A DNA stretch of 64,000 nucleotides from a virus, in IMG/VR virus record IMGVR_UViG_3300027970_000001, positions 32,001 through 96,000 of that record; one strand, written 5' to 3'. Made by a program: the position numbers and the translations under genes. The notes below the pieces were generated by a model, which saw only the letters and a list, made by a program, of their open reading frames with translations, made no database searches and had not been told where the DNA came from. Position 1 is the first letter of the stretch. Each line of letters starts with the position of its first letter. This document shows, piece by piece, positions 4,370 to 64,000 of this stretch.

Positions 4370-5326
4370 ATGTCAGCCGCACCGCCCATCCATCCGAACA
4401 GCGCTCGCCTAGTCAGCCGCATGGGCATTCGTCCAGGCCGGACCACCGGAAGTCCTCGCATGCACGCGGGCATCGACGTTGGCTCGACGACTCCCGGCGC
4501 TCCGGTGATGTCGATGTCCAATGGCGTGGTCGAACGGGTTGGCAACAACGCGAGCGTCAACGACCCCCTACGTGGCTATGGCGATGCGGTCGTCATCAAG
4601 TCCGACGGCGAGGACCGCTGGGTTCTCTACGCGCACATGTCGAACCCGCGCGTTCGCACGGGCGAGCGCGTTCAGGCTGGGCAGGTCATCGGCAACGTGT
4701 CGAACACGACGAACGGCCAGTTCAGCCCACTGCCCGGAGAGTCCCTGGCGCAGTTCAGGGCGCGCAAGACTGCCGAGGGCGTTGCTCCGCGCGTGATGGT
4801 TCCTCACCTTCACATCGAGGTGCGCGGGCCCCGCCGCGACGGCACCTCGCCCTTCCTGCCGCTGCCGACGGCGTATCCGCAGACCGTGGCTCAGGCGGTG
4901 TACAACGTGAACCCGCAGGAGTGGATGGCCAGCAAGGGCATCACCTTCGGCGCCCGCGGTGCCACCGTGATTGCCCCCGGCTCTGCTGCCGCGCGTAACC
5001 AGGGCACCTGGAATCGTGGCGTTGCTGGCCTTGGCATGACCACCGCTCAGGCGAACGCTGCGATGGGCTGGACGCCTGCCAAGCTCAAGGCGTACTGGGA
5101 CGCGAAGGCCAACGCCTGCCAGTACATGGCGGACGAGGGAAACTGCTTGGCTCAGGTGGCGCAGCACGTCCCGGTGACGCTGGGCGGCATGGGCCAGTAC
5201 GAACCGGTTCGGTTCGAGCGCGACATCCGGTTCGGCCTGACTCCTCTTCAGTGGGGCCTTGTCGCCGCGACCGGCGTTGCGGCGCTCGGCTCTGTCGCCC
5301 TTCTCATTCGTCGCCGGAGGCGCTGA
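4370..5326 (+). CDS. M23 peptidase with C-terminal membrane anchor and Arg tail
   Basis: HAGID, LYAHM and PHLHIE M23 zinc motifs; ends WGLVAATGVAALGSVALLIRRRRR. Confidence 0.85.
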   Translation: MSAAPPIHPNSARLVSRMGIRPGRTTGSPRMHAGIDVGSTTPGAPVMSMSNGVVERVGNNASVNDPLRGYGDAVVIKSDGEDRWVLYAHMSNPRVRTGERVQAGQVIGNVSNTTNGQFSPLPGESLAQFRARKTAEGVAPRVMVPHLHIEVRGPRRDGTSPFLPLPTAYPQTVAQAVYNVNPQEWMASKGITFGARGATVIAPGSAAARNQGTWNRGVAGLGMTTAQANAAMGWTPAKLKAYWDAKANACQYMADEGNCLAQVAQHVPVTLGGMGQYEPVRFERDIRFGLTPLQWGLVAATGVAALGSVALLIRRRRR

Positions 5327-6957
5327 TGTACGCGGTCATTCCGAATCCTCCGAACGACCGGCTGAAGTACATCGCCAAGACGTACGAGAGGCAGCCTTGG
5401 ATCGTGATGGACATGATCGACATCATGTCCAACACGGTGGGCGAAGGGTACTGGTTCGACTTCTTCCGCGGCGGAGACGTGATCTCGGCGCCGCTGAAGA
5501 AGGCGCTCAGCATGCTGACCTGGTCTGACGACCAGAGCGTCGGCAAGCAATCCGTCGAGGGCAGGGCCACGATCTCGGATGTTCGCAAGAACGAGATCAT
5601 GCAGGCGGCCAGGAACACCGAGCTTGCCAAAGAGCTTGTCGAACGAATGTCCGAGTGGGACGATTTCAAGGCGCCAAGCGTCGCCGACAAGGCCTATTCG
5701 TGGATGGCCACGCAGCTCGCCAAGCTGTTCAAGGCTGGCGACTTGGATGCCTACACGGACGCGGTGCAGCAGTTCAAGGCGCGTGGCTCGGCCATCGGCG
5801 CGTGGGTGCAGGAGACCGGGCCCAGCCTGACCCAGATGACCTACGGCCAGGTCATAGACGCTGTCGATGAGTTCCAGCCTTCCACCGATACGCCTCCGAC
5901 TCAGTACGAGGCTGTCTACACGTTCCCCGACAAGTGGACCGTACAGAAGCTCCCTGGCGACTACTGCGAAGAAGAGGCGGATGCGATGCAGCACTGCGGC
6001 ACCGCAGAGCGCCGCGGTTCTGTCCTCTACTCGATCCGAGACCCGAAGGGCTTCCCCCACGTCACAGTCGAGTACCACCCGAAGACCAAGGACGTTGTCC
6101 AGGTCAGGGGCAAGCAGAATCAGCCTGCGATTGCGAAGTACCAGAAGTACGCGGACGAGTTCTTGGCGACGCTGCCGAGGCTGCCGAAGCACGTCGAAGC
6201 GCTTATGAAGGTGATCAGAGAAAGCCCGTACGACGACGGCCAAGAGTACGATGTTGAACTCGCCCTGGAGTGGGCAAACGCTGGCTTCAACGCGTCTGAG
6301 CTTTCCGACTGGCTGGACGCGGGTCTTGAAGTGGGACGATCTGACGTGGCAGAGGTTCTTGCGTCGGAAGACGTCTCCCCGGCAGAGTTTACGACCTTCC
6401 CCTACCCGGTGCTTGAGCTGATCCAATACGACAGCGGCGGGTTCGACACGGACCTGATCGGCATTGCCCGCCTGTATGTCGCGATGGCAGGACGCATGCC
6501 GGTTCGTCGTCAAACTGAGTTTGAGTTTGCTGTCCAAAAGAAGCAGCCCCTCCCGCCTGGGAGGTTCAAAGGCACAGAGGGGCTTGCTCAGATGCTCAAG
6601 GATGACCGCCAGCGTCTTCTTGAGGCGCAGGACTGGGTCGACGCTGGGAGGCGCGCGAAGATCTACGCGGAGCCTGGCGCGATGGCTGGCTGGTGGTCTC
6701 GCGGGTTCACTCTGCGTGAGCTTGAACGGTGGAGCGAGGAAGGCATCACCGACAGCCGGGTCGCCGAGGCTCTCGTCAGTTTCGGGATCGGCGCTCATGA
6801 CCTGGAAGATCTGAACGTGGGCGTCAGATCGATGGGCGGTCCGAAGGCAGACGACGTCCAGGGCATCGTTGCCGCCGTGGAGAAGAAGAGGCTCAGCGCC
6901 AACCGCTCCAGGCGCCGAACGTCAGTCCGCGTTGCTAGGAAGACCTCTCGGCGGTAG
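5326..6957 (+). CDS. PcfJ-like domain protein (paralogue family), tagged at both ends
   Basis: WTVQKL..EEEADAMQHCG..LYSIRDPKGFPHVTVE; starts MYAVIPNPP; ends LSANRSRRRTSVRVARKTSRR. Confidence 0.7.
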   Translation: MYAVIPNPPNDRLKYIAKTYERQPWIVMDMIDIMSNTVGEGYWFDFFRGGDVISAPLKKALSMLTWSDDQSVGKQSVEGRATISDVRKNEIMQAARNTELAKELVERMSEWDDFKAPSVADKAYSWMATQLAKLFKAGDLDAYTDAVQQFKARGSAIGAWVQETGPSLTQMTYGQVIDAVDEFQPSTDTPPTQYEAVYTFPDKWTVQKLPGDYCEEEADAMQHCGTAERRGSVLYSIRDPKGFPHVTVEYHPKTKDVVQVRGKQNQPAIAKYQKYADEFLATLPRLPKHVEALMKVIRESPYDDGQEYDVELALEWANAGFNASELSDWLDAGLEVGRSDVAEVLASEDVSPAEFTTFPYPVLELIQYDSGGFDTDLIGIARLYVAMAGRMPVRRQTEFEFAVQKKQPLPPGRFKGTEGLAQMLKDDRQRLLEAQDWVDAGRRAKIYAEPGAMAGWWSRGFTLRELERWSEEGITDSRVAEALVSFGIGAHDLEDLNVGVRSMGGPKADDVQGIVAAVEKKRLSANRSRRRTSVRVARKTSRR

Positions 6958-6967
6958 GGTGGTAACG

Positions 6968-7803: not shown

Positions 7804-7804
7804 C

Positions 7805-8278
7805 TTACCTGCGCGCGTTCCGAACGTGCTGCTCGAACATCGGATTGCAGAGCGGCATCATGCCCTCTTCGGGCGCGCGACGGTTGCGGCGGATAAGCTC
7901 AATCGCCTGTCCTCCCGTCATGTTGTACAGGCTCATCAGCGTGAACGCGCTGACAAGGCCCGACCGGTTGACGCCCATCGCGCAGGTGCTCGCGACCGTT
8001 CGTCCCGACCGAATCTGACTGGCCAGCTCTGCGCCGACCGACCGGATGGCCTCCGCGAACTCCTTCGGCAGGGGACGGTACGGGTCATCGTCGAGAGGGA
8101 TTCGGATCACGGCCTTGCCAGGCGGAGGCTTGAGCCTCGGCTGCTTTTCCTCGGCGCACAGCACCAGGGTGTCGATGACCGAAAAAGCCTCGATGGGAGG
8201 GTTTGGAAACCCACCCTGAATGAGCTTCCCCGGCACGACCCAGTCGTAGTTCCAGTCAAGTTGCTTCTTGTATGACAT
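7805..8278 (-). CDS. Dual-specificity/tyrosine protein phosphatase
   Basis: CX5R loop TCAMGVNRSG and an upstream PLDDD general-acid loop. Confidence 0.85.
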   Translation of the reverse strand: MSYKKQLDWNYDWVVPGKLIQGGFPNPPIEAFSVIDTLVLCAEEKQPRLKPPPGKAVIRIPLDDDPYRPLPKEFAEAIRSVGAELASQIRSGRTVASTCAMGVNRSGLVSAFTLMSLYNMTGGQAIELIRRNRRAPEEGMMPLCNPMFEQHVRNARR

Positions 8279-8366
8279 CGTCGGCGCCACCATAGCACGG
8301 ACGCAGGAAGCGCTTGCGTACATTCGACAGACTCTGCTAGGTTCGGCGCCTCATCCAAGGAGGGGT

Positions 8367-10087: not shown

Positions 10088-11005
10088 TCACCGTCCTCGC
10101 TTGCTCGTGCGCCGACGCGAGGACTTTCTCCTGCTGGTGCGGCGGTTGGGCGTGATCTTCCAGGTCTTCTCCAGGCTCGCAACCTCGGACCCTTGGCTCA
10201 GCTTCATGCCCATGCTGCGGGGCAGGTCCGTGTAGGCCGACTGAGGGGACTCCTCATCGGCCTTGTACGAATAGTCCACCATCTCAACTCGGACGCCCTC
10301 TTCGGCTGCCTTCTCCAGGAGGAATCCGACAGCGTCCTCGAAGAGCCTGGCCTGCCACGGTTCAACCTTGTCCATCAGGTCGAGCATCTCCTGAGGGTCG
10401 ACGCCGTGCGCTCGAAGCTGCTGCGACATGAACGGGTCGACGGCGTTCTTCCTGACGCCCGTCACGTCCGACTGGACCTCCTCGACGAGCCACACGCCGT
10501 CGCCCTTGTCGCACCATCGGATCCAACCGACGCAGTAAAGCGGGCTCTGCTCCGACGGGTGACCGGAGTTGTCTGAGGCGCGACTGATTGCGTCCAGCAA
10601 GCGCGCCTGGCGATCGTTCAGGTCAAGCTGGTTGTAACGGACGCACAGCTTCAGCACGCGATTGGGCTCGTCGCATAGCTTGCCCTTTGCTGTCAGGGCT
10701 CGGAGGCGCTCCTTCACCCACTCGACGTTCGGCGCGTGGGGGTAGAGCCGAGGGTACTTGCGAAGACCCTCAAGGGCAGAGTCGACGGTGTACTCGTCCT
10801 CGACGACGGTCCATTCGACGGGCGACTGGTACGCCTCGCGCAGCTTGTCGAGAACCTCGTCGCTGAAGTCCCTACCGCCGGTCTGCCCCTTGAGCACCTC
10901 GAAGGCTTCGGGATACATGCGCTTGAAGTCTCGTGCGCCACGGGGTGTCCCGGGCTTACGGAACTTCAACATCGCTGACGTTTTGCGACCTAGTGACCTT
11001 GCCAT
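10088..11005 (-). CDS. EEVQSD-motif (polyvalent-protein-type) domain protein with Arg/Ser tail
   Basis: GWIRW...WLVEEVQSD; ends ITPNRRTSRRKSSRRRTSKRGR; paralogous to the C-half of 58848-60497. Confidence 0.6.
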   Translation of the reverse strand: MARSLGRKTSAMLKFRKPGTPRGARDFKRMYPEAFEVLKGQTGGRDFSDEVLDKLREAYQSPVEWTVVEDEYTVDSALEGLRKYPRLYPHAPNVEWVKERLRALTAKGKLCDEPNRVLKLCVRYNQLDLNDRQARLLDAISRASDNSGHPSEQSPLYCVGWIRWCDKGDGVWLVEEVQSDVTGVRKNAVDPFMSQQLRAHGVDPQEMLDLMDKVEPWQARLFEDAVGFLLEKAAEEGVRVEMVDYSYKADEESPQSAYTDLPRSMGMKLSQGSEVASLEKTWKITPNRRTSRRKSSRRRTSKRGR

Positions 11006-11469: not shown

Positions 11470-12963
11470 CTACTGGGCGAGCCGCTTGGGACGGACGGGC
11501 TTGCCGCCGCATCCAATGCACTGGATGTCGAGCTTACCGTACTCGATAGGATCTCCAAAGATCAGCTCGGCAATAACGTCGGCGCGACGCTCGACGCCAT
11601 CTGGAAGCTTTTGACCAAACAGCTTTTCCAGGTGCTTCTTGCCGTACCTGAAGTCAACCGCGTGCCCGAACTCGTGGCGCATCAGGCCGCGGATGTAGGC
11701 CACGGGCTGGCCTTCAATCTTCGCTGCGAACGCGATGACGATCGGATCACCGTCCATGCAGTACCCGAACTGCCGCTCGGACCCGGTCCCGTTGTCCGCT
11801 GCGGCCTTCTCGTCGTGATGCAGCTCGCAGGTGCCAAAGTCCCCGAACGCCTGCTCCACCACGTCAAAGCACTCGTCGAAGATCTTGGTCGACTTCGGTA
11901 GCGCCGTGCCCGGGTTGCTGGCCATCTCCACGCTGATGGGCAACGCCCCGCCGCTCTGGCTGCCGTGTCCAAAATCGAACATGACCGCGCGTCCGTCAAG
12001 CGCGACCCCCATGTTGCGAAGGTGAACATCGCGAACCACGAATCCCTTGTCGGAGAGCTTCCTCAGGCCAGCGAAAATGTCAGCCATGTACCGCTCCCCC
12101 ACCTTGCTGTGGCGACCTTCCTTGAGCCGGACCGTGTAAAGGTCGTCAAGCTCCTCGGCTGTCATGGGCTGGGAGCTGTGCTCGATGGCCGTGAAGTCCG
12201 CCTCCTCTCGGAAGTTTCTGCAAATTTGAGCGATGGTCTCCCGAATCAGCTTGTTGTTGAGCTTCTCAGACGGCGGCATGGACGGTTCCGGTATGCTCGG
12301 GTGCTTCTTGTCGAACGGGTCAACAAACTCGGTGACGATTGCGTAGAGCGACCGGATCGAGTCCCCGTGCATGCTGCCCGGGAACTCTTCCCTGACAACT
12401 GTGCCGGGCAGCTTCCAGACCTCAAACACTTCGACAAGACCAGGCGACCTTCCCATCCGGCGAACAGCCTCGGCTGCCAAGCCATCATCCCGGTCGTCGG
12501 TCACCTTGAGGACGCGCCCGTCATCCAGCCGGAACGCATGAGCGTAAGCCCCCGCCCCGATGGTTCGCTTCTCAAGCTCGTCTGCTGTCACGCGCTTGAG
12601 CCCGATGCGCCTGGTGAAGTTGGGCACCTCGCGCAGCCGGTCGACCACATCGTCGAGGAACGGGCGGTTGGGCGTGAGGCCGGCTGCCGCGTACATCTGC
12701 TGAGGTCCGAGCGACACGATCTTGGGGTTTGGAGCGAGCCCCGCCTTCGCGCGCTCCTCCATCTTCATGAGGCGCGCGTAGTAGTCGGGGAACTCGCGCA
12801 GATGGTCCAGGGCAATCCGGCCAGCCTGCATCAGGTCGGACGTGTGCTCCTGCTCGGTCTCAACGCCGAGGCGGAACTCGCCCAAGTCGAACCCCGCCCC
12901 GACCTGTCCGAGAGACGCAAGGATGCGCCTTGCCTGATCAAGTCCAACAGACTGCTTGCCCAT
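11470..12963 (-). CDS. Multidomain protein: DUF5661-like + kinase-like + HExxH zincin
   Basis: GVETEQEH..IALDHLREFPDYY; IGAGAY..VLKVT..RDVHLRN..FDFG; MRHEFGHAVD. Confidence 0.75.
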   Translation of the reverse strand: MGKQSVGLDQARRILASLGQVGAGFDLGEFRLGVETEQEHTSDLMQAGRIALDHLREFPDYYARLMKMEERAKAGLAPNPKIVSLGPQQMYAAAGLTPNRPFLDDVVDRLREVPNFTRRIGLKRVTADELEKRTIGAGAYAHAFRLDDGRVLKVTDDRDDGLAAEAVRRMGRSPGLVEVFEVWKLPGTVVREEFPGSMHGDSIRSLYAIVTEFVDPFDKKHPSIPEPSMPPSEKLNNKLIRETIAQICRNFREEADFTAIEHSSQPMTAEELDDLYTVRLKEGRHSKVGERYMADIFAGLRKLSDKGFVVRDVHLRNMGVALDGRAVMFDFGHGSQSGGALPISVEMASNPGTALPKSTKIFDECFDVVEQAFGDFGTCELHHDEKAAADNGTGSERQFGYCMDGDPIVIAFAAKIEGQPVAYIRGLMRHEFGHAVDFRYGKKHLEKLFGQKLPDGVERRADVIAELIFGDPIEYGKLDIQCIGCGGKPVRPKRLAQ

Positions 12964-14514: not shown

Positions 14515-15276
14515 ATGATGCCGTACGTTTCGACCATCACTCCCCTGGACCTACGTGGCATGGGGCTCGGCACCGAGGCGGCGCGCCCCACCGACGAGGA
14601 AATCGCCCGAGGTCGCCTGGACGCTCAGATTTCCCGCGAGTCCGGCGTGCCGGTGCCGTCGCTGCGAGCGATCCGATCCGTAGAGAGCGGCGGCAACCCG
14701 GCGGCGGTGCGATTCGAGACGCGGGTCTTCAGGAACCGAACCGGCCAGACCGTTGAAGGACACGACCGCGCGGCGTTCCAACGCGCGTATGCGATCAATC
14801 CCCTGGAAGCCGTCAACTCGACGTCTTGGGGATGGTTCCAGGTGATGGGGTTCCACGGCTTCCCCGAGATGTTCGGCGGCCCTGGGCAGGCCGTCCGCGC
14901 GTTCGACGCAAACCCCGAAGAGGTCGGGATGCGCCTGTTTAAGCGGTGGATGGACAGTCCACGCCACGCCGCAGCCAAGCTCGCCGCGCGTACGCTCAAC
15001 TTCGCTCAGTTCGCCAGGTTCTACAACGGATGCGGCGACTCGTGCGAACGATACGCGAGCCGCATGCAGCAGAACTACGACCGCGCGTTGCCTGAGTGGC
15101 GACGGGTGGAACCGTACGTCGGCGGCGGTGGCACGCCACAGGTGTGGCCGAAGTGGTCCTATTGGGCCATCGCTGGCGGCAGCGTCGCTGGGGCCTTGGG
15201 ACTCGTCGGCGGCGCGGCTTACCTGCTGCGCCCGAAGAAGAAGCGCCCCGTCTCGGCTAACAGGAGGCTGCGGTGA
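14515..15276 (+). CDS. N-acetylmuramidase (DUF3380-like) with C-terminal membrane anchor
   Basis: AIRSVESGG, VRFE and STSWGWFQVMGF motifs; C-terminal helix then PKKKRPVSANRRLR. Confidence 0.85.
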   Translation: MMPYVSTITPLDLRGMGLGTEAARPTDEEIARGRLDAQISRESGVPVPSLRAIRSVESGGNPAAVRFETRVFRNRTGQTVEGHDRAAFQRAYAINPLEAVNSTSWGWFQVMGFHGFPEMFGGPGQAVRAFDANPEEVGMRLFKRWMDSPRHAAAKLAARTLNFAQFARFYNGCGDSCERYASRMQQNYDRALPEWRRVEPYVGGGGTPQVWPKWSYWAIAGGSVAGALGLVGGAAYLLRPKKKRPVSANRRLR

Positions 15277-48117: not shown

Positions 48118-48441
48118 TCAGCGGCGCGAGGTCTTGCGCTTCGAGGTCTTCTTACGCTTCGACGACATCAGGCTCGATTCGAGCCGGCCACGACGCTCGG
48201 GAGCGGACTTCTTCGAGGTGCGCTTCTTCGAGGCAACCTTCTTGGAGGTGGCCTTCTTGGAGGTGCGCTTCTTGGAGGTGGCCTTCTTGGAGGTGCGCTT
48301 CTTCGAGGTCTTGCGCTTGGAAGCCCGCTCTGCCTTGCGCGAGGCGGCCTCCGCGAGCTGATCAACGCGAGCGAATAGACGCATCAGTTCCTGCATGCGA
48401 GAGATCAAGCTATCTTTCGAGGGCAACTTCTTCTTTGCCAC
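48118..48441 (-). CDS. Histone-H1/protamine-like basic protein
   Basis: (K/R/A)TSKK pentamer repeats encoded by 15-bp repeats; GGAG SD before GTG. Confidence 0.75.
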   Translation of the reverse strand: MAKKKLPSKDSLISRMQELMRLFARVDQLAEAASRKAERASKRKTSKKRTSKKATSKKRTSKKATSKKVASKKRTSKKSAPERRGRLESSLMSSKRKKTSKRKTSRR

Positions 48442-51393: not shown

Positions 51394-51762
51394 TCACATA
51401 CCAACGGGAACGAGCTTGGTTCCGCGCGCAACGCGGTGAGCCTCAGCCCAACCACGCGGGACTTCAAGCACAAATCGGTATGGACCGCCGGGCTCGATGC
51501 TGCGGTGGCTCATCGGCACCCCCTGCCTCACCGACACCACACGCCACATGGCGTCGATGAAGATGATGTCCAGAGGCAGGGGCGTGTCCTTCATCCAGAA
51601 CGCGCCTGAGGCGGCACTCGGGAAGGCGAACAGCATCCCGGTACCGGCGGGCAGCGAGCGGACGCCCATGAGGCCCTGGGCAATCTCGTCGGGCGTCGAG
51701 GCGACGCAGACGCGCACCGAGCCTGCCCCCGGCACCATCACAGACGGCGGCGTGTAGCTCAT
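51394..51762 (-). CDS. DUF192-family protein
   Basis: QGLMG...GMLFAF...FWMKDTPLPLDIIFID...VLEV. Confidence 0.85.
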   Translation of the reverse strand: MSYTPPSVMVPGAGSVRVCVASTPDEIAQGLMGVRSLPAGTGMLFAFPSAASGAFWMKDTPLPLDIIFIDAMWRVVSVRQGVPMSHRSIEPGGPYRFVLEVPRGWAEAHRVARGTKLVPVGM

Positions 51763-53216
51763 CGTCGGCTCAGCGGCTTGTACGGCTCATCGAACGAGCG
51801 GTTCGGCGTGAAGCGGCGCCGGCTGTTCTTGGCAAGCTCTCTGGCCGCGTCGAAGTCGTTCACGCTTGTTGGGTTGACGCCGATGTCGGTGAAGACTTGC
51901 TTCCAGAAGGTCACCTCTTCGGGGAACTTGAAGTTCGTACCGGATTCGTGCTTGCTGGCGTAGCCTGGGGTGCGGTTGGTTGCGCCCTTGATCTGCTTGA
52001 TGGCCTGGCCTCGGTCGAAACGTGCCAGCTCAGCCGGCGTTGTACCCAGGCGCTCCAGCTCCGCGCGACTTCGTGGCTCCTCGACCACGCTGTAGAACGA
52101 CGAGTCTACCTCAAGCGTGAAGCGAGGCTTGTCGTTTCTGTCTCGCAAGCTCCAAATCTCAATCCTGCCGTCGACCACGGCCTTGATGTAGCCCATGCCT
52201 TTGTCGCCTACGCAGTGCTTCATGCGCGTGCCCTCGGCCCGCAGGTCCGAGGAGCGCAGCTTGATGAGCCGCCAGGGCGCCTGCTCGATGAGGACGCCCT
52301 TGGTCACGCCCATCTGCCGAAGCTCGTCGGCGGAGAAGGTGGCGATCTCTTCTCGATCGATGCTTCCGCCGCCTTCGATGGCCTTGTAGTAGTCGCGGAT
52401 TTTCTCGACGACTTCCGAGCGGTCTTCGTCGTCGTCGGCCTCCGACCACGACGCGGCTAGCTCGATGAGATCATCCCTGGTCGGGGGCGTCAAGGTCAGC
52501 TTGCTCCTGAGCTGCTCCTTTTCGTCTTGAGCCACGATCTCGACGGCTGAGCTGATGAAGCTTCGGATTGCCTCGTCAGGGTCGCGCTTGATCAACTCAC
52601 GCAGGTAGTCCTTGATGATGTCGTGGCAGAACTCCTCAAAATCATTTTCTTTCGCCACGATTGAGACGGATTGGTACCCGTCAGTATGTCCGCCCTGCTC
52701 CTGGATGACGCTGGTGCCTTCTGACCAGTCGATGCTGACGCCGATATTTTCGTAGAACTCCTCGGCATACGAGGCCGGCACCATTCCACAGTTCTCAAAG
52801 AGTTGGCTCTCGTCGAGCCATACGCTCTCGCGTGGAGTGAAGCTCCACTCAAACCCGTATCCTGCCCGTCGCAGTCCCCCGTCGGATTTGAACTCGAAGA
52901 TTCCGGCCTCGCCCCGACGCCGCTGATTCATCCGAGCCTGGTATGCCAGCGCCTCCTTCACGCTGTCCTCGGGGACGTGGCTTAGGTCGGGACTGCTCTG
53001 CTCCATCACCTCATCGAAAAAGTTCGAGTCGTATCGGACGATGTCTTCGATCGAATACTCCTCGGTTTCGCAATGGAGTTGGTCCAGGTCCAGCCTTGGC
53101 GCGAACTCTTCGATCTTGCTCTCGATGTCCTCGCGTAGCTCTTCGTCGCCCGCGGCAAGAGCCGCCTCAACCTGATCTCTTGAAGTGGCATCGCTCAGCA
53201 GCATCACATCCTCCAT
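51759..53216 (-). CDS. Acidic protein with C-terminal PcfJ-like domain
   Basis: AEGTRMKHCVG...IWSLRDRNDKPRFTLEV...QIKG; ends LAKNSRRRFTPNRS. Confidence 0.7.
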   Translation of the reverse strand: MEDVMLLSDATSRDQVEAALAAGDEELREDIESKIEEFAPRLDLDQLHCETEEYSIEDIVRYDSNFFDEVMEQSSPDLSHVPEDSVKEALAYQARMNQRRRGEAGIFEFKSDGGLRRAGYGFEWSFTPRESVWLDESQLFENCGMVPASYAEEFYENIGVSIDWSEGTSVIQEQGGHTDGYQSVSIVAKENDFEEFCHDIIKDYLRELIKRDPDEAIRSFISSAVEIVAQDEKEQLRSKLTLTPPTRDDLIELAASWSEADDDEDRSEVVEKIRDYYKAIEGGGSIDREEIATFSADELRQMGVTKGVLIEQAPWRLIKLRSSDLRAEGTRMKHCVGDKGMGYIKAVVDGRIEIWSLRDRNDKPRFTLEVDSSFYSVVEEPRSRAELERLGTTPAELARFDRGQAIKQIKGATNRTPGYASKHESGTNFKFPEEVTFWKQVFTDIGVNPTSVNDFDAARELAKNSRRRFTPNRSFDEPYKPLSRR

Positions 53217-55343: not shown

Positions 55344-56216
55344 TCATTCATCGAACCTTGGGGGAACCGGGATCGTGTTGCCTCTGATCTGGCAGTCGAC
55401 GGCAACGAGCCGGATGTCATTCGATGAGAATCGCATCTCGCACTCTTGCGGGATGTCCTCGCTCCGCGCGCCCTGCTTGATAGCCGCCTGCACGATGCTG
55501 AACTGGCTCGGCGAGAGATTCAGGTACTTCTTTGCAGAAGCGGTGAAGCCGACCAGGGGCATGCAGACGCCGCCGTCCCACCAGTCGTCCACGGCGAACG
55601 TAGACCGCAGACGGGTCTCGACAAACTGAGCCAGCTCGTACCTGCGCTCGGGAGTGTTCCAGCGCCGGTTCAGGTCATCCCGCTGCTCGTTGACCATCTG
55701 CTTCCAAGGGCCTCCGTGCGAGAGCGACTGGATGTCATCAGGGGGCTCTACGCCTAGCGTTGCGCACAGGTCGCCGAGGTCTTCCGACGCCCGATCCCAT
55801 CCATCGGCTTCGGCATCCTCCCAGTTGTTTTCCCAGATGTCGCCGGGGAATCCTGTCCATTCGAGGGTCAAGAGCAGCACGTCCGACGCATCGCCGTCTT
55901 GGGCCGCAACGAGGAGTCCGCGCATCGACGAGAACAGCCACATGGCTCGCGAGCGGCTGATCACGAAGCTGACCCATTTGCCGCTCGGATCGCTTGGCCC
56001 TCCTCCAAGCCCCACGATCCCCGTCTCAGATCGAGACTTGAGCCCCTGCTTGAATACTCGGTCGCGGTTGGTGGTGACGTGGAAGAAGCCCGCGTCGTCT
56101 TCGGGGCAGTAGTCCTCTAGCACAGTTCCCTCGACCCAGTTGTATGGGTCGAGCAGGAACGTGGCGTCGCGAGGCGGGATCGGATTGCGGCGGGGCCGGC
56201 GCGAGGTGCGCTTCAT
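55344..56216 (-). CDS. ART-fold-like protein with N-terminal RTS tag
   Basis: MKRTSRRPRRNP; FFHVTT...GLKSR...GGGP...VSF. Confidence 0.5.
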   Translation of the reverse strand: MKRTSRRPRRNPIPPRDATFLLDPYNWVEGTVLEDYCPEDDAGFFHVTTNRDRVFKQGLKSRSETGIVGLGGGPSDPSGKWVSFVISRSRAMWLFSSMRGLLVAAQDGDASDVLLLTLEWTGFPGDIWENNWEDAEADGWDRASEDLGDLCATLGVEPPDDIQSLSHGGPWKQMVNEQRDDLNRRWNTPERRYELAQFVETRLRSTFAVDDWWDGGVCMPLVGFTASAKKYLNLSPSQFSIVQAAIKQGARSEDIPQECEMRFSSNDIRLVAVDCQIRGNTIPVPPRFDE

Positions 56217-56234: not shown

Positions 56235-58196
56235 TCAACGACGGCGGCGCGAGGTGCGCTTGGAGGTGCGGCGGTTCTTGGTGATGACCGGATCTGCCGG
56301 ATCGAACGTACCCTCGTTCGGCCCCGACCCAGCGATGACTTCGCCAGCCATCGCTCCGAGCCCCGACTGTTTGATGGGGCCAGCGGCGGCGGACTTCGCC
56401 TGCGTGGGACTGAACCACACGTAGAGCGTGGCCGACTTCTTACGGCCACGGCCGAAGTTGTCGTTGTAGTAGTCGACCACGTCGTGGACGATTAGTCCGT
56501 CAGCGCCCTGTTCGCGGGCCTTGGCGATCCACTTTTCGGTCCCTCTCCACTCCTTGCCGCCCCAGTCGATGGAGAGCGGGCTCTGGATCGACAGGTAGAG
56601 CGGGATTACTCCTGGCTCGGCGTTCTGGTAGTCCCAGGCCCGATTCGCATCGGCGTAACTTGCCGCCATCGCGTAGCTGTCCGTCGCGAAGAAGGCGTCG
56701 CCGCGCATTGGGCTGCGCCGGAAGCCCTCGGAGAAAATGCCCCGGCCGTCGGGCGTGCCGTGGTAGACGACCAGAGGCGCATTACCCTTGCGGCGGTCCC
56801 TGACCTTGCTGTCCTTGAACCAAGCCTTAAAGGATGGCGTCTCGGTCATGCCGGGGTTCCGCAGGATGCTCAAGTCGTCGGGATCGAAGGTGCCCACGTT
56901 GTCGGTGGCCGACTTGATCTGCCGAGGGTCGAAGACAACGTACTCGTCGTATCCGTGGACCGAAACGATCACGCCGTCGATGCCCGCAGCAGCCATGCCA
57001 CGGATGACGTCCTCTTCCGTAAAATAGACCTTGAACGCTGCGGAATCTGCGAGGAACAGGAACGCCCTGCTGGGGTCAGCGAGGCACTCGCGCATCAGGC
57101 GTCGATGGTCTTCCTTTGCGTCGTATCCGCTTGGGAAGCGAGTCGTCTTGATGGCAGAGAAGAACCGGCGGATCTGATCGGCCGTCATCTCGCCTCTTGT
57201 CGGCCGCTCGATTCGCAGGTAGGTGGCAATCTTGCGCCCGCTGTCGCCGTGGAAAGCCCTCAGCGTGGTGGGATCTGCGCTGAAGTAGAACCCAGGCCCG
57301 AACCTATCCATGCCAGGCGTCGCCGGTCTTTTGAACACGTCAAAGTCGCCCCGGGTGCCGTGGTACAGAACCAGCGGCTCACCGTTCTCATCAACGACCT
57401 TGCTGTCCCCGAACCAGCGGCGGAACGCCGGGTTGTCGAGCGGGCTCGGTCCGTTGCGATCCATCTCGTTTGAGGTGCCGATGATGAGCGCGTCGATGAA
57501 CCGCTGGCCGCGTTGGACAGCCAGCGTCACCCGATGATGCCCATCGTGGACGTACCACACGTCTTCGCCCACCACGGGGAAGTGCCCGTCGAGGAACGGG
57601 TACTTCTCCTCGGGGTAGTCGACTTCTTCGACCTCGCCGGGGCCGTCGAGGATAACTGGAGGCAGCTCGTAGCCCTCGTCCTCAAGCTCGGCCAGCTCGT
57701 CGATGCGCTCTTGGCGGATGGGGTTGATGAAGGGGGATGCGATCTGACTCACCGGCACGCGCTGGATAGCGAAACCCCGCGCGTACTGCGGGATCTGCCC
57801 GTACTCCTCGTCCCACGGAGGGTTTTTCGACATCGCAGACGAGCGGACCCACGCGGCGCCCGATCCACTCTGATCTTTGCTGGCCTCGATGGGTCCATAA
57901 TCTGCGATTGCCGCGGAAAGCAGCTTGGAGGCCACCCCCGTCCGCCTGAAGGAAGGAACCACGTACACGTTCGCTGCGATGGGCGCTTGGCCTGTTCGCT
58001 CCACAATCTGCAACGCTCCGATCGGCTCTCCATCCGCGTACATCACGTACCTGACGCTACGACCGAAATAAGAGTGCTCGCCCAGGAACTTGGCGATGCC
58101 GCGGGCCACAGGGCGGCCCTTCTCTTTTCCGATCTGAGCCACACCGCTCGGGCGACCGACAAGGTACTCAAGTCCTTCGTTGTACTCTTCGCTCAT
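56235..58196 (-). CDS. Four-domain polyprotein: GNAT + ParB-like + ART + ART, with Arg tail
   Basis: YVVPSFRRTGVASKLL; VHDGHHRV; two SKV.D..G.PLV.YHGT...VF.P.QIKSA modules; ends ITKNRRTSKRTSRRRR. Confidence 0.8.
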   Translation of the reverse strand: MSEEYNEGLEYLVGRPSGVAQIGKEKGRPVARGIAKFLGEHSYFGRSVRYVMYADGEPIGALQIVERTGQAPIAANVYVVPSFRRTGVASKLLSAAIADYGPIEASKDQSGSGAAWVRSSAMSKNPPWDEEYGQIPQYARGFAIQRVPVSQIASPFINPIRQERIDELAELEDEGYELPPVILDGPGEVEEVDYPEEKYPFLDGHFPVVGEDVWYVHDGHHRVTLAVQRGQRFIDALIIGTSNEMDRNGPSPLDNPAFRRWFGDSKVVDENGEPLVLYHGTRGDFDVFKRPATPGMDRFGPGFYFSADPTTLRAFHGDSGRKIATYLRIERPTRGEMTADQIRRFFSAIKTTRFPSGYDAKEDHRRLMRECLADPSRAFLFLADSAAFKVYFTEEDVIRGMAAAGIDGVIVSVHGYDEYVVFDPRQIKSATDNVGTFDPDDLSILRNPGMTETPSFKAWFKDSKVRDRRKGNAPLVVYHGTPDGRGIFSEGFRRSPMRGDAFFATDSYAMAASYADANRAWDYQNAEPGVIPLYLSIQSPLSIDWGGKEWRGTEKWIAKAREQGADGLIVHDVVDYYNDNFGRGRKKSATLYVWFSPTQAKSAAAGPIKQSGLGAMAGEVIAGSGPNEGTFDPADPVITKNRRTSKRTSRRRR

Positions 58197-58855
58197 CGGT
58201 CTGACCGCTTTAGGTTCTGCTCCCAGAACTCGTACCCCTTGAGGTACATGTCGACAGGCACGCCGTTGACGCCTACCAGGAACTCGGCGGGCACGGCCTT
58301 CCAGATGGCCACCACGCCACCAGGGCGCGGCGGGTCGTACAGCCCACGCCCGTGCCGGAAAGAGGCCCCCACGGCGCCTCCCCAGCCTTCCCAATCGTGG
58401 GGCACATCAAACACGACCCATGACGTGTACTTGTTGTAGCGCGCTCCAGGGTCGCTCGGATCGAACGCGACGAAGAACACCAGATCTGGCGCTTCGCTGT
58501 ATTGGCCCACGCCACGGGGTGAGGCGACGAGGCCCTTGGCGATGATCGAGGAGAGCACGTCGGACTCGGACTTCATGCCCTCGGGCAGCTTCAAGATGCT
58601 GTGAACCAGCCTCGTTGCGTTCGACGGCACCGGAGGCAGAAGAGCGTTCTCTTGCTGCGCATCCATGGCGCCTCGGAGCGCATCGATCATCTTGGTGTTG
58701 TCGAAAAGCTCGTCCTCGGTTAGCCCGAAGACGGGAGCGATGCGCTCGATAAGGTCAAGCGACTGCATCAGGTCGCCCTCGCCTGCCTGCCAGCCGGCGA
58801 AGATGGAAGCGAGGGTGTCGCGGGCGTCGATGTCGATGCTTGCCTGATCAGTCAC
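58193..58855 (-). CDS. Two-domain protein with ART/2'-phosphotransferase-like C-domain
   Basis: GTGACTGA overlap start; VPSNA junction then LVHS...SIIAKGL...VFF. Confidence 0.45.
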   Translation of the reverse strand: MTDQASIDIDARDTLASIFAGWQAGEGDLMQSLDLIERIAPVFGLTEDELFDNTKMIDALRGAMDAQQENALLPPVPSNATRLVHSILKLPEGMKSESDVLSSIIAKGLVASPRGVGQYSEAPDLVFFVAFDPSDPGARYNKYTSWVVFDVPHDWEGWGGAVGASFRHGRGLYDPPRPGGVVAIWKAVPAEFLVGVNGVPVDMYLKGYEFWEQNLKRSDR

Positions 58856-60497
58856 GGTGGCTCTTGTTCGGGACGATCCGGCGCACATTCAAGCCAGAAT
58901 CCCACGTTCGGAAAGGAAAATCCTTCAAAGGCTCCAGAGGACTGACCGTGTACTTCTTCGGCAGGTCGTCGTAGAAGCTCTTGGGCGGAGTTCCGCCAAT
59001 CCGCTTGCGGCTGACGAAGTCGGGCACGAGAACCTGGCGGTACCGGTTCGCGAACGCCCACTCGACCACGATGTTCAGCGCATCCGAGGCGAACGTGGGG
59101 AAGTACATCTCGCGGAGCAGCTTTTGGACTGACTCTGGCTCATCAATAAGCCTGAACTCCATCCACGGCCTGTCAGACTGGATTTCGACGATCACCAGGC
59201 CAGTCGGCGGAGAGACCGCCATTCGCACCCATCCGATGGCGTACTTGACCCTCTCGTCAGGATGGCCGTCTTGTTTGAAGAATGCGTTGTGCAGGTTGTT
59301 CGTGACGTACTCGCGAGCGTCGTCAAGGTTTACGCGCCACGGCTTTTCAGTCGCCTGCCGCATGGCCTCTTCCGTCACCTCATCGATGACAGCGTTCGGC
59401 ACGGCCAGCACGAGCACGTCCTCTGTTTGAGGTCCGAGCATCTGCGTGCCGTGACCGGAGTGGTAGGTGATGCCGCCGAATACGTCGTACCGAGCGGGCG
59501 ACAGCGACTCGAAGCTCATTTCGACCAGCGCCTCGTCGGTCGCCGGAGGGGAGATGCGGAGCACCTCTTTGGTGACGGGATGCTCAAGCAGGTCCGGCCT
59601 GTGCTCGGAGACCAGCTTCTTCGTCAGCTTGCCGTCCTTTGACTTCAGGTTTGCGATGCGTGCCAGCTTGCTCAAGGCCCACGACCTGGCGGTCCCTGGC
59701 TGGAAGTCACTCAGGATGAGTTCCGGCGTGCCGACGGTGAGATCGTTTGGGCGGGCGCCCCACCATCCCGCGATCGGAGACGGCGTGTATGTCTCGCGAA
59801 GGCCAGCGGGCACGGGGAACTGTTCTTGACGGAAGCCTTCCTGCTCGTCGTCATCTTCATCATCCGGCGGTGCATCGCCATCTTCGTCTTCGCTTAGATC
59901 GTCGACAATCGTGAATCCGACGCGCGGTTCATCGCCAATGCCCTCGCGCCGCTGGCGGCTCTCGGCAGTAAAAGAGACTCCAGCGCCTTGCCGGACAACG
60001 GAGCGCGGTGGAAGGCGGGCTCCGCTTGGAACGTGGGACACGGCTCCGATGGTCGACTGAGCGCCGATCACGCATCCCGAGCCGACCTCGGCGCCATCGC
60101 CGATGGTCGTCATGTCCCCGATCTGAGCATCCTCTCCGACGTATGCTTCAGCCCCCACATCGACGCCCATGCCAATGGACGCGTCTTGGCCGATATCGCC
60201 GCGGATGTCTGCGTGAGCCTCGATGCGGGCCCCGTCGTGAATCACGCCTTGCAGAATCGCGGCGATCGCCACCACGCCATCGCCGATGGTGCAGGGCTCC
60301 ACGATGACACACTGTTCGAGACGGGAGTGGCCGATCGACACGTTGCCGTTCGGCGCGATGATGACGCACCGGTCAAGCTCGGCGCCCCATGAGACCTCTG
60401 CTGAGCCTTCGATGCGCTCCTCGAAGGGCATGGAGTATCGGCGGTTCCAAGCGGGGTCTCGCTTGCGGAAGTCTTCGATGGGGTTGCGGCGTGTCAT
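58848..60497 (-). CDS. Left-handed beta-helix (hexapeptide repeat) + EIQSD-motif domain protein
   Basis: MTRRNP start; IGxxAxIG hexapeptide repeats; acidic linker; GWVRM..IVEIQSD; ends IVPNKSHRD. Confidence 0.7.
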   Translation of the reverse strand: MTRRNPIEDFRKRDPAWNRRYSMPFEERIEGSAEVSWGAELDRCVIIAPNGNVSIGHSRLEQCVIVEPCTIGDGVVAIAAILQGVIHDGARIEAHADIRGDIGQDASIGMGVDVGAEAYVGEDAQIGDMTTIGDGAEVGSGCVIGAQSTIGAVSHVPSGARLPPRSVVRQGAGVSFTAESRQRREGIGDEPRVGFTIVDDLSEDEDGDAPPDDEDDDEQEGFRQEQFPVPAGLRETYTPSPIAGWWGARPNDLTVGTPELILSDFQPGTARSWALSKLARIANLKSKDGKLTKKLVSEHRPDLLEHPVTKEVLRISPPATDEALVEMSFESLSPARYDVFGGITYHSGHGTQMLGPQTEDVLVLAVPNAVIDEVTEEAMRQATEKPWRVNLDDAREYVTNNLHNAFFKQDGHPDERVKYAIGWVRMAVSPPTGLVIVEIQSDRPWMEFRLIDEPESVQKLLREMYFPTFASDALNIVVEWAFANRYRQVLVPDFVSRKRIGGTPPKSFYDDLPKKYTVSPLEPLKDFPFRTWDSGLNVRRIVPNKSHRD

Positions 60498-60499
60498 GG

Positions 60500-62221
60500 T
60501 CAGCGTGCCTCTCTGCTCGTCCGGCGCTTCCGGTTCTTCTCGATGCCGCGAGAGCTGAGCCAGTCGAGGACATCCTGAAGGTCGGTCGACTCGTTGACAT
60601 CCATGCCCTCGGTTTCTTCGGGCGAGATGCCGCGATCGATCAGCCTGCGCACCGTCTCCGGCGTGAACTCGGTGTCCGACCCGTCCGCAGCATCCTCGGT
60701 CATCCACTCGAACGCCACGTCGGGAGAGATGCCCTGCTCCGCCCACTTCTTGACGTCTTGGTAGTCGAAGGTCGGGTCGACTTCGATGAATCCGGTCGCA
60801 ATCCAGTCCTCCGCAGGGAACACGAGGAGCCCCTTCGATCCCTCGCTGTCGGGGTAGAAGCCCTGGTGCCTCCACACATCGGAGATGGCTTTGCGCTTTT
60901 TGATCTGAGCTGCGCTCATCGAAGGCGGCGATACGTCTACGCCTGGGAGTGAAGCCTGACCGGCGGGCGAGAAATATGGCGCAGCGGCGGCAAGACTTGA
61001 TGCGATGCGGCCGGTCTTGATCAGACCTTCCGTCCTTCGGCCACCGTCGTCCTCTTCGATGGCTCTCTGCACCGCCCACGGGAAGTCGCGGAACTCTGCT
61101 GGCGAAACGTCTTCGCCAAGCATGCTTTTGACTGACTGATACGCCGTGAAATAGACTCCTTCGTCCATCCACTCCATGAAGTCAGAGACGTTGCGAACGA
61201 CCTCAAGCCACTTCGTTGCGTAGCCCTCAAGGTGCTCTTCGTCGATCCAGTCGACGTTTTTCTGTGCCCAGTCGACGATCGCTTGAATGTCAGGCGGGAG
61301 CTTCTTCACGTTCAGCGTCGCCATGAAGCTATCGACGTACTTCTTGTACTTCTCGGCAGGCGTCTTGTTCTGCTTGCCGAAGGTCTGGATGGCTTTGTTG
61401 AGGTTCTCGTTCCACTCGATCGTGACGTGCGGAAACCCCTTCGGGTCGCGGATGGAATAGAGCACCGAGTCGCTCATGCGAGCGCGACCGCAGTGCTGCA
61501 TTGCATCCTTCTCTTCTTCGCAGTAGGTGCCGGGAAGTAGCTGAACGGTCCAGCCGTCGTCGAAGGTGTGGGCAATCTCGTGCTGCGTGGGAGGCTTCTT
61601 GCCGGACGAGTCGAAGTCCTCGATCGCCTCCTTCACTTCGTCGAAGCTCATCGACGTGAGGTTCGGCTTTTCCTTCTCGGCCCACTGCCCGATCGCAGTG
61701 CCGCGCGTCTTGAAGAACCGAACGGCCTCAACATACTCGCGAGCCTCTTCGATGATGTGGGGCGCAATGCGATCGCCATCGTCTCGCCGCGTGGCCTGGA
61801 GGGCAGTCACGACAGGCTTGGCCTTGTCTGCCAACTGCTTGGACATCCAAAGGAACGTGCCCTCGGACTGGTTGCGCTCCTTGAAGCCTCGTAGCTCGGA
61901 GACCATCTCGACGAGGATTGGCGTGGCTTCGGCCACCTCGTTCTTGAGTGAGGTGAAAAGCGGTTCGGTTGTCGTGTAAATGACCCTCTCGATGAGGCGG
62001 CTGGCTCGGTATGCCGAGTTGATCTCAGCAGCGTCGTCGGACATGGCGGCTTCGCCCATCGCCTTAATGGCGGCGTCGGTGACGGCCGTCTTCCAGCCGT
62101 CTTCGCCGACGGTGTGGGCGATGACGTCGATCATGGAGAACGTCACAATCGGGTACTTCGCGTACTGCTTGGCGATGTACCGAAGCCGGTCGGCCGGCGG
62201 ATTCTGTTCAAGCCTGGTCAT
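60500..62221 (-). CDS. PcfJ-like domain protein (close paralogue of 5326-6957)
   Basis: MTRLEQNPPADRLRYIAKQY; DAMQHC..SVLYSIRDPKGFPHVT shared; ends IEKNRKRRTSREAR. Confidence 0.75.
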   Translation of the reverse strand: MTRLEQNPPADRLRYIAKQYAKYPIVTFSMIDVIAHTVGEDGWKTAVTDAAIKAMGEAAMSDDAAEINSAYRASRLIERVIYTTTEPLFTSLKNEVAEATPILVEMVSELRGFKERNQSEGTFLWMSKQLADKAKPVVTALQATRRDDGDRIAPHIIEEAREYVEAVRFFKTRGTAIGQWAEKEKPNLTSMSFDEVKEAIEDFDSSGKKPPTQHEIAHTFDDGWTVQLLPGTYCEEEKDAMQHCGRARMSDSVLYSIRDPKGFPHVTIEWNENLNKAIQTFGKQNKTPAEKYKKYVDSFMATLNVKKLPPDIQAIVDWAQKNVDWIDEEHLEGYATKWLEVVRNVSDFMEWMDEGVYFTAYQSVKSMLGEDVSPAEFRDFPWAVQRAIEEDDGGRRTEGLIKTGRIASSLAAAAPYFSPAGQASLPGVDVSPPSMSAAQIKKRKAISDVWRHQGFYPDSEGSKGLLVFPAEDWIATGFIEVDPTFDYQDVKKWAEQGISPDVAFEWMTEDAADGSDTEFTPETVRRLIDRGISPEETEGMDVNESTDLQDVLDWLSSRGIEKNRKRRTSREAR

Positions 62222-62649: not shown

Positions 62650-62718
62650 GGTCGGCTCTCCGGGTAGTCGTCACGATGGGTAGCGCCGGGATGATAGCTC
62701 ATGTCATCATCATTGCCC

Positions 62719-64000
62719 ATGGCTACCAAGCGTACGTCCCGTCGCCCCGTGTCCAGAAACGCCGACGGCGGCAGCCTCGCCGTGCCCCCCGATCCGGCTT
62801 TCATCGAACGCATCGAGAGCGTGGACGATCACCTTTCGACGCCGGGCCAGTATTACACGACGACCGGGCAGCAGGCGTACCTCGTCGCGCGCTCGATGAC
62901 CTGGCACCCGATGGTTGAGGCCGGCGAGGAGACCTACTTCGCAGAGGGGTCCGTCTTTCACTGGACGGTGCTGGCCGATGAGAAGTCGGCCACGTCCGAC
63001 GTGCTACCGGTCGAGCTTCTGAACGAGAAGGTCCAGATCGAGCAACTGTCTGATGCTGTGTCCAGGCTTGGAAAGAACGCCATGCGCCGAAACGGCGATG
63101 AAGGCGGCGAGGACTGGGGCGTCACGGAGAGCTACTTCCTCGACAAGCTGGATGCCTATGACCGATGGGAGTCGGCTTTCTGGCGCGAACTGCTGCAAAA
63201 CAGCAGGGACGCCGGAGCGACGAAGATCGAGCTTTCCTCCGAGGAGACGACCTATTCAGATCCGGCGACGGGTGAAGGTCTGCCGGCGGTGCTTTGCGTC
63301 TGCCGCGACAACGGCGTCGGCATGGACAAGGAGACGCTCAAGCGCGCCTTCTTCACGCTCGGCGGCTCGATGAAGCCGGCCGGCGCGGTGGGCGGGTTTG
63401 GGGACGCCAAAGAGCTGATCCTCACGCCGTGGTACCGATACGAGGTCCGCACGCGAGGCCTGCTGGCCATCGGGCAGCACCAGCGCCTCTTCGCCCCGGG
63501 GATTCGGAGCGGTGAGCCGTTCGTTCAGGGCGTCGAGATCCGCGTATGGATGCCGGTCCACAAGAGCACGAACGACAGCTACGCCGTCGGAGTGCTTGAA
63601 AAGAGCCACCTGATCGGCATTCGGGTTACGGTCAACGGGCAGCGAGTCAGCGCCGACCTGATTGGCGGCGACAAGGTCCGCGAGCATCCGATCACGATCA
63701 CCACGTTCACCGTGTCGTGGTCGGAGCGCGGGGAGGGGCGAACCCAGAGCTTCGCGTACAGCGACGAGTTCTACGAGTTCACCAATGGGCTGAGCCGCAA
63801 GGGCATCGCCTACGACACGTCCAGAGAGCAGAAGGAAGTCGGCAGGATGGAGATCTGGCGTCAGCCGCGCTCCAAGCGCAACGGCTGTTTCGTCCGAGGC
63901 TCCGGCGTGTTCATGTTCGAGAAGAGGGTCGACGCCAACATCAAGGGCGCCATCTTCGTCGACATCACCGCCCCGCCGCGCGGCGTTTTCACCCGCAAGC
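62719..64000 (+). CDS. GHKL (Hsp90/MORC/gyrase-type) ATPase, 3'-truncated by the window edge; absent from the ORF track
   Basis: My translation: MATKRTSRRPVSRNA...LGKNAMRRNG...RELLQNSRDAG...CRDNGVGM...GGFG; no stop before base 64000. Confidence 0.8.
   Translation, partial: MATKRTSRRPVSRNADGGSLAVPPDPAFIERIESVDDHLSTPGQYYTTTGQQAYLVARSMTWHPMVEAGEETYFAEGSVFHWTVLADEKSATSDVLPVELLNEKVQIEQLSDAVSRLGKNAMRRNGDEGGEDWGVTESYFLDKLDAYDRWESAFWRELLQNSRDAGATKIELSSEETTYSDPATGEGLPAVLCVCRDNGVGMDKETLKRAFFTLGGSMKPAGAVGGFGDAKELILTPWYRYEVRTRGLLAIGQHQRLFAPGIRSGEPFVQGVEIRVWMPVHKSTNDSYAVGVLEKSHLIGIRVTVNGQRVSADLIGGDKVREHPITITTFTVSWSERGEGRTQSFAYSDEFYEFTNGLSRKGIAYDTSREQKEVGRMEIWRQPRSKRNGCFVRGSGVFMFEKRVDANIKGAIFVDITAPPRGVFTRK

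Follow-up and report, generated by a model that had tools for sequence, protein, structure and literature searches.

Why would one virus equip dozens of unrelated proteins with Arg-rich peptides that are set off by the same short motif, hydrophobic-x-x-Asn (ΦxxN)? The question is raised by a 64,000-nucleotide stretch of IMG/VR virus record IMGVR_UViG_3300027970_000001 (positions 32,001 to 96,000), hereafter called the window. An earlier sequence-only reading had proposed that motif and basic tags form a code by which cargo is loaded into the virus head and released by an Asn-specific maturation protease. Our analysis supports the tags and their Asn boundary as a selected, clade-wide signal. 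Together they look like an undescribed tagging signal, which is probably a trimming signal too. The proposed code is thus upheld in part: its signal is under selection and effector-type domains occur on the carriers, whereas the head-type setting has to change. Below, P1 denotes the Asn, P4 the hydrophobic residue, P1' the residue that follows the Asn, and a slash the boundary.

Genes of prokaryote type are densely packed in the window, whose G+C content is 63%. Joining it to six loci, with zero mismatches in the overlaps, gave a closed circle (or circular permutation) of 139,033 bp, of which it forms positions 1-64000. Contigs from different lake samples agree with zero mismatches (loci L008, L010 and L012-L015), and contigs of 139,074 and 139,129 bp begin at differing points of the circle. 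Our own codon-usage gene caller placed 184 genes on it. The virus is present in lake-water and freshwater metagenomes from several studies; the sequencing runs listed as containing it include none of RNA. Searches of a phage-record collection with the window as DNA and with its 573-amino-acid (aa) protein found no match, and our literature search turned up no paper that deals with this virus clade or with Asn-directed maturation of virions.

An Asn boundary sets off basic tags

We quantified the motif against shuffled tails of open reading frames (ORFs) in the window and over the 184 genes of the genome. Window proteins have [MLIVF]xxN[RKS][RK] 11 times within their final 25 residues, against 0.67 expected, and none of 2,000 shuffles reached that count of 11. 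Genome-wide, ΦxxN[RK][RK] occurs 25 times against 3.9 expected (z = 11.8), and replacing N at P1 with Q, D or S leaves no excess (z about -1). Asn stands directly before 16 of 69 basic-cluster starts (expected 2.15, p = 3e-10) and directly after only 3 of 61 basic-cluster ends. At P4, M, L, I, V or F is found in 19 of 20 C-terminal sites (background 0.247), with Pro, Ala or Lys predominating at P2. The C-terminal class, for which an excess over shuffles had been predicted, is therefore beyond chance. Of the 34 proteins whose C-terminus is basic, 19 carry the motif, and in a membrane-protein array outside the window (89.9-100.9 kb) the pattern appears on nearly every member.

Without exception the motif separates domain from tag: the Asn immediately precedes a C-terminal tag and forms the last residue of an N-terminal one. 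Because of this fixed position, cleavage behind the Asn would detach the tag at whichever end it sits, as the sequence-only reading had recognized. The N-terminal class is weaker (ΦxxNP, 30 against 16.4 over the whole genome, z = 3.3). In each of the five N-terminal leaders of the RTSRR type, the last residues are x-x-[RM]-N, with P, A or V coming next. As claimed, tags are absent from the glycosyltransferase, recombinase, Orn and RuvC genes.

Could these patterns be accidental? The sites had been picked by eye, and high G+C favours Arg codons. All 23 of the 23 listed sites were nevertheless recovered by ORF translation, 21 of them with the claimed M/L/I/V/F at P4 (PRRN and TRRN are the exceptions), and the shuffles and P1 controls exclude chance. 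Nor do the tags derive from a DNA element repeated at gene ends, since synonymous codons differ from copy to copy; this origin we rejected. Orthologues, moreover, retain the motif while neighbouring residues change. We regard chance, selective picking and a DNA element alike as already refuted.

The signal is conserved across a clade

Conservation in homologues, a further prediction, held at 35-55% identity. A 78.8-kb relative (a contig of 62% G+C binned into a 'Clostridia' metagenome-assembled genome, MAG) has orthologues that keep the motif with changed P2, P3 and tails; pairs from this genome and the relative are MQAN and LRAN, MSPN and VRAN, and VSAN and MRRN. A 161.5-kb relative carries the motif on eight membrane proteins. 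Within a 116-aa family, 23 of 25 clusters have [MVIL]xxN/[RK]n, and the sole member in which Asn became Lys is also without the tail. Comparing this genome with the relative, we found no informative case of gene fission or fusion at motif sites. A distant relative, the 12-kb contig L026 (45.7% G+C), is mostly without Arg tails and has one tail in Lys form, MKKN/KNKKV. Perhaps the Arg tails were elaborated within the high-G+C branch.

Junction and two-sided sites favour cleavage

The motif also appears inside multidomain proteins. A 653-aa protein carries MSKN/P (57822-57833), MDRN/G (57453-57464) and ILRN/P (56856-56867) at its domain junctions, at 56856..57833 (-). They fall after the GNAT part and after the ParB-like part, with MDRN/G and ILRN/P lying 4-8 residues before each duplicated ART module. 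In a 497-aa protein, LAPN/P (12727-12738), LTPN/R (12667-12678) and MASN/P (11914-11925), at 11914..12738 (-), separate the DUF5661, kinase-like and HEFGH parts. Other basic peptides are bounded on both sides, as in VVMN/RRRTSRK..RRLRRN/V, which occurs twice in an 811-aa core-like protein, and VAAN/RRRRRKSS..LTPN/Y in a 229-aa membrane protein. This pattern of junctions and two-sided framing fits excision after Asn.

We tentatively favour a reading, to which we give somewhat less than an even chance, in which portable polybasic tags bounded by aliphatic-x-x-Asn hold their carriers at the DNA or the inner face of the particle and are then cut off after the Asn. The polybasic peptides would first hold virion membrane proteins, cell-wall hydrolases and polyvalent-type effector enzymes against condensed viral DNA or the acidic inner particle face. 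An endopeptidase with non-primed-side specificity (Asn at P1, aliphatic at P4) would then cut the boundary, either at maturation or after delivery. This cut would release both domain and polybasic peptide, comparable to the processing of pVII, pX/Mu and pVI by the adenovirus protease. Cleavage is the best reading because a protease that reads P4-P1 and accepts any P1' accounts for the position of the motif, its framing of basic peptides and its presence at junctions, whereas a helix cap or docking motif does not.

An anchor that stays uncleaved is possible, although we consider it rather doubtful. Here the Arg tail would tie membrane proteins and enzymes to DNA, acidic lipid or the inner capsid face, and ΦxxN would serve as a structural stop or docking element, such as a helix C-cap with a hydrophobic staple. 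Consistent with this, 13 of the 20 C-terminal sites lie 9-20 residues past a C-terminal transmembrane (TM) helix, a place where the positive-inside rule alone would lead one to expect a basic tail, and Asn-Pro is a common helix terminator. Tails without the motif and profile searches without a protease, both described below, also agree with it. Capping, on the other hand, does not predict a near-invariant Asn with aliphatic P4 across 25 clusters, basic peptides bounded on both sides, or motifs at tagless junctions; and Gly, the usual C-cap residue, precedes only 4 of 69 basic-cluster starts, compared with 16 that follow Asn.

Sites across the window

One paralogous PcfJ-like family accounts for four of the ten N-terminal examples, which are therefore not independent: MYAVIPN/PP at 5326..5349 (+), whose Asn (N7) is invariant in 10 sequences; (V)LTPN/A at 16120..16137 (+); MLTQN/PP on an 82-aa stand-alone N-domain at 47129..47146 (-); and MTRLEQN/PP at 62198..62221 (-). 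A 366-aa protein begins MPRKLQPN/D, 42475..42501 (+), and its orthologue has MHGPRSKRLRGN/A at equal distance from a conserved YHATLALD. Further N-termini are MRRN/P on a 290-aa protein, 48004..48018 (-), and MTRRN/P on a hexapeptide-repeat protein, 60480..60497 (-). Longer leaders comprise MKRTSKRPDRKSSRRRHLAMN/P at 48961..49026 (-), MKRTSRRPRRN/P on a 290-aa protein at 56181..56216 (-), and MATKRTSRRPVSRN/A at 62719..62763 (+), which heads a 1143-aa HATPase-like protein that extends past the window.

Among C-terminal sites on enzymes and other soluble proteins, the 543-aa PcfJ-like protein (gene 5326-6957) ends in LSAN/RSRRRTSVRVARKTSRR, 6892..6954 (+), a tail kept in homologues. A 294-aa soluble protein (gene 10088-10972) ends in ITPN/RRTSRRKSSRRRTSKRGR, 10091..10156 (-). 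The 481-aa PcfJ-domain protein has two sites with a short basic peptide between them, LAKN/SRRRFTPN/RSFDEPYKPLSRR, 51762..51836 (-), and its counterpart in the relative reads LERN/VSRN/ATRSFDEPY. ITKN/RRTSKRTSRRRR, 56238..56285 (-), closes the 653-aa GNAT, ParB-like, ART, ART protein. The 573-aa PcfJ-like protein ends in IEKN/RKRRTSREAR, 60503..60544 (-), and its homologues at 35-39% identity keep Asn and an Arg tail. IVPN/KSHRD on the hexapeptide-repeat protein, 58851..58877 (-), is a weak case with a barely basic tail.

Membrane proteins supply the other C-terminal sites. The muramidase (gene 14515-15276, PF11860) ends in VSAN/RRLR, 15250..15273 (+), 12 residues past its TM helix; its orthologue in the 78.8-kb relative has MRRN/RRG instead. 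MQAN/RRRRRSRR, 21856..21891 (+), lies 17 residues past a TM helix (gene 21229-21894; orthologue LRAN/RRRRRS), and MSPN/RRRRRRRRVR, 22215..22256 (+), 19 residues past one (gene 21891-22259; orthologue VRAN/RRRR). FKKN/RRRHRRHS, 45517..45552 (-), follows a TM helix by 14 residues (gene 45514-45744). Two short membrane proteins, of 88 and 89 aa, end in VRKN/RRRSRR, 19537..19566 (-), and LRLN/KHGRRRRR, 45251..45286 (-). One C-terminal tag, KRTKRTSRS..KRTSKVPARRR at 21100..21181 (+) (gene 20615-21184), has no Asn boundary, and its orthologue reads RRRTSRP..KRRTSRAG.

Carriers and the type of virion

Most carriers are single-pass membrane proteins rather than soluble cargo. Several soluble carriers have ART-PolyVal, GNAT, ParB-like, PcfJ or DUF5661 domains, which are typical of packaged polyvalent effectors; ART-PolyVal (131.5 bits), PcfJ (33.2) and DUF5661 (57.4) score above the Pfam cut-offs. 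The 653-aa and 497-aa proteins each combine at least two effector domains in one polypeptide, and most other carriers are single-domain. Virion packaging and proteolytic release have been predicted for the polyvalent protein class (PMC5512222).

For a T4- or phiKZ-type head, the precedents named by the sequence-only reading, we found no support. Over the whole circle, no HK97 capsid, portal, terminase, prohead protease or tail gene is among the Pfam hits, with the reservation that many genes are hitless and divergent forms are possible. Instead, a 264-aa protein (L008:43-837, about 17-18 kb past the window end) is a predicted single jelly roll with 77 representative relatives. Structurally, the SPV1 capsid protein matches it best (Z 8.2, root-mean-square deviation (rmsd) 3.2, 135 residues aligned; a Z of 8 is borderline), followed by capsid proteins of STIV, HCIV-1, HHIV-2 and P23-77, which are membrane-containing archaeal or bacterial viruses. 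As a query against the relative's MAG, it was not found. Given this jelly roll, about 15 membrane proteins and a membrane-anchored muramidase and M23 peptidase, a membrane-containing, non-tailed particle is favoured, and the picture of head cargo must be re-read accordingly. A head of the T4 or phiKZ type is improbable for this virion. To our knowledge, a 139-kb bacterial virus with a membrane-containing jelly-roll particle would be without precedent.

We also considered a sorting signal for a host or viral insertion or secretion machine, like the LPXTG and PEP-CTERM C-terminal sorting domains. The TM-plus-basic part does give sub-threshold matches to LPXTG, LAETG, PVV-CTERM and GG_III-CTERM models, but all NCBIfam matches fall below the curated cut-off. 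The order here is TM, motif, basic tail, whereas sorting domains run motif, TM, tail. As the same motif stands on soluble enzymes and N-terminal leaders, and no sortase-type gene is among the Pfam hits over the circle, we judge a sorting role very unlikely.

Candidate enzymes

Searching for the predicted maturation protease yielded candidates and no assignment. One candidate for an enzyme that may act on the motif is a 186-aa protein that heads the tagged membrane-protein array, 36.9 kb past the window end. Its AlphaFold2 model (pLDDT 87) has a transglutaminase-like fold with a papain-like core and best resembles 3kd4, a putative protease (VIA Z 12.8, rmsd 3.1, 160 residues aligned); other VIA matches are TG2, TG3 and factor XIII (Z about 10.5), PNGase (Z 8.8) and LapG (Z 8.3). 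The predicted triad of Cys109, His147 and Asp164 is invariant in 30 homologues, one of which carries PF01841, and homologues in more than 130 clusters, on contigs up to 298 kb, show the protein to be conserved. We rejected self-processing at its N-terminal LRAN as a general feature, LRAN being present in only 3 of the 30 homologues.

Another candidate peptidase lies inside the window: the zincin-like C-terminal part of the 497-aa protein, 11473..11913 (-), whose HExxH motif is HEFGH. It matches Peptidase_M57 at E = 0.004, below the Pfam cut-off, and found no match among PDB sequences. Several further HExxH motifs, including HEVTH of the 1143-aa protein, have no family support above cut-off.

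A second module is common to about 20 membrane proteins, namely N-terminal leaders of the form M-[ST]-Y ... G-[LM]-G(-Q). These leaders occur in the window at 14515, 19800(-), 21891, 30310(-), 51762(-) and 53446(-), and at L011:3701-12101; they are kept in all relatives, the low-G+C one included. A transglutaminase might use the conserved Gln that follows GLG as its substrate.

This fold admits another chemistry, which we consider improbable. The enzyme would use the Asn carboxamide for an isopeptide cross-link, transamidation or deamidation, fixing tagged proteins to a partner with the chain uncut. Its matches to transglutaminases and PNGase, which act on Gln or Asn side-chain amides, agree with this, as do the Lys-Asn isopeptides of HK97 capsids and Gram-positive pili. 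Transglutaminases, however, use Gln, so that the conserved Gln of G[LM]GQ is the more natural substrate; the enzyme is retained where the Asn motif is rare; and cross-linking leaves the constant position of the motif between domain and tag unexplained.

Several observations weigh against cleavage after Asn. Searches of Pfam, PHROGs and NCBIfam with about 80 proteins gave no assignable maturation protease. The 45.7% G+C relative keeps the gene for the 186-aa protein together with M[ST]Y leaders and has only two motif-plus-basic sites; since the transglutaminase-fold gene is present where the motif is scarce, it is not tightly coupled to the motif and may serve the G[LM]GQ leaders instead. Fifteen of the 34 basic C-termini are without the motif, and bare ΦxxN is not enriched inside proteins, contrary to a general excess. 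The claim of N-terminal tags stands for the five RTSRR-type leaders, but several others cannot be tags because they are 4-7 residues long and non-basic, and in the PcfJ-like family the Asn may simply be part of the domain. Pro at P1', disfavoured by most endopeptidases, is frequent in N-terminal and junction sites. Finally, the motif, its enrichment, Asn specificity, fixed position, junction and two-sided occurrence and conservation are observed, while DNA binding, packaging (virion location) and cleavage of the tagged proteins are what we infer.

Relation to known systems

The closest likeness is to adenovirus, where cutting at sites with an aliphatic P4 frees Arg-rich peptides from core precursors. 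In adenovirus (pVII, pX/Mu and pVI/pVIc) as here, precursors bear Arg-rich segments, which bind DNA in adenovirus; P4 is aliphatic; and the capsid belongs to the jelly-roll lineage, on our prediction for this virus. Small basic peptides are excised there by two-sided cuts (Mu) or from the C-terminus (pVIc), which by analogy would resemble the framed and terminal tags described above. The adenovirus site, (M/I/L)XGG/X or (M/I/L)XGX/G, differs from the Asn motif, which does not conform to it. Its enzyme is adenain (clan CE), whereas here the virus is of bacterial type and the carriers are mostly membrane proteins. No adenain, Ulp1 or I7-type protease had a Pfam hit on the scanned or precomputed genes, although no profile search aimed at such proteases was made.

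T4 (internal proteins and Alt, cut by prohead protease gp21) and phiKZ/SPN3US, with their head proteases, offer a likeness to the scheme proposed here: unrelated proteins, an ADP-ribosyltransferase among them, are sent into the particle by one short portable peptide, which is taken off at a simple motif. The T4 capsid-targeting sequence is only N-terminal, non-basic and cut after Glu (L/I-x-E or S/A/G-x-E), unlike the tags here. The recurrent boundary residue in this genome is Asn rather than the Glu of (L/I)-x-E, in P1 controls that covered Asp, Gln and Ser. The T4 system also needs an assemblin-fold protease and an HK97-type head with its scaffold core; the Pfam hits include none of these.

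Polyvalent proteins of phages and conjugative elements share the repertoire of ART-PolyVal, GNAT, ParB-like, PcfJ and zincin-like peptidase domains (Iyer et al. 2017, PMC5512222), and the two multidomain proteins here are built in the same way. Most domains in this virus, in contrast, are separate genes with their own tags, and a single motif recurs at the junctions; that work (PMC5512222) describes neither a motif nor a tag of this kind.

An Asn at P1 is shared with legumain (clan CD) and with the asparagine peptide lyases of noda-, tetra- and reovirus coats, including the Asn/Pro cut of reovirus mu1. The lyases act autocatalytically inside a folded coat protein, and neither they nor legumain use an aliphatic P4 or remove tags. 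No legumain-type gene is among the Pfam hits.

Tag composition and protamine-like proteins

The tags are Arg/Ser/Thr-rich and protamine-like, with the unit basic-basic-Thr-Ser-basic-basic: a two-residue spacer separates basic pairs in 44 cases, of which 24 read Thr-Ser, and the order Ser-Thr never occurs. A 107-aa Lys/Arg-rich protein of KRTSKK-type repeats, 48118..48441 (-), with 42 K+R against 7 D+E, amounts to a protamine-like protein in its own right, assembled from the tag unit. Elsewhere, an 811-890-aa protamine/H1-like protein (L011:15747-18419) has KAKAK tracts, basic cassettes and hydrophobic Gly-rich C-terminal repeats.

Arg runs broken by Ser/Thr in a basophilic-kinase context are also found in baculovirus P6.9 and the hepatitis B core C-terminal domain, and this virus encodes a phosphatase and a kinase-like domain. 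P6.9 and hepatitis B core are dedicated core proteins without an Asn boundary, whereas here portable tags sit on many proteins. The dual-specificity phosphatase (DSPc), 7805..8293 (-), could conceivably act on the Thr-Ser of the tags. The kinase-like domain at 11914-12666 (-) is weak, with DVHLRN and DFG motifs and PDB kinase matches at E about 0.1. Tag charge may be regulated by phosphorylation, the tag repeats offering a basophilic-kinase context, an idea that we put forward as such.

Other features of the genome

A row of large proteins (229-1047 aa) without a Pfam hit runs from L015:10633-20633 into window 1-1788. Two of them have common starts (MALRSP.., MATRSP..) and ends (..EVAHNI..), and these large proteins are likely receptor-binding spikes or fibres. 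After them come amidase and M23 lysis enzymes (window 2742-5326). A LAGLIDADG endonuclease and a PAPS-reductase/ParB (IbrAB-like) pair lie between putative capsid genes (L008:954-4437). In the early or replication region, a DUF2201_N putative metallopeptidase with a VWA domain adjoins a 374-aa protein (L013:14082-16467). The genome also encodes an 838-aa helicase with a Hint (intein) domain (L014:10513-13029) and, in the window, one tRNA-Leu gene with anticodon TAG, 51308-51389 (-).

Implications

More broadly, these data may point to a new lineage of 140-300 kb membrane-containing jelly-roll viruses of freshwater bacteria. In such viruses, Asn-directed excision of protamine-like Arg peptides from about 40 precursors would condense or organize the genome and release membrane proteins and injected effectors in one step. 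We hold this larger picture to be possible but unlikely as a whole. We know of no such maturation code or protease specificity described for any virus.

If cleavage takes place, it would represent a new viral protease specificity, with Asn at P1 and an aliphatic residue at P4, and a polybasic tag, portable and usable in both orientations, with which proteins might be loaded beside packaged DNA. It would also allow the virion proteome and mature protein ends to be predicted from sequence across an uncultured clade, in which one core gene alone has more than 130 homologue clusters, and it would link polyvalent-type effector delivery to a non-tailed virion. If the tags remain uncleaved, about one protein in five would still bear a short linear signal that is shared throughout the clade and is unusually clear.

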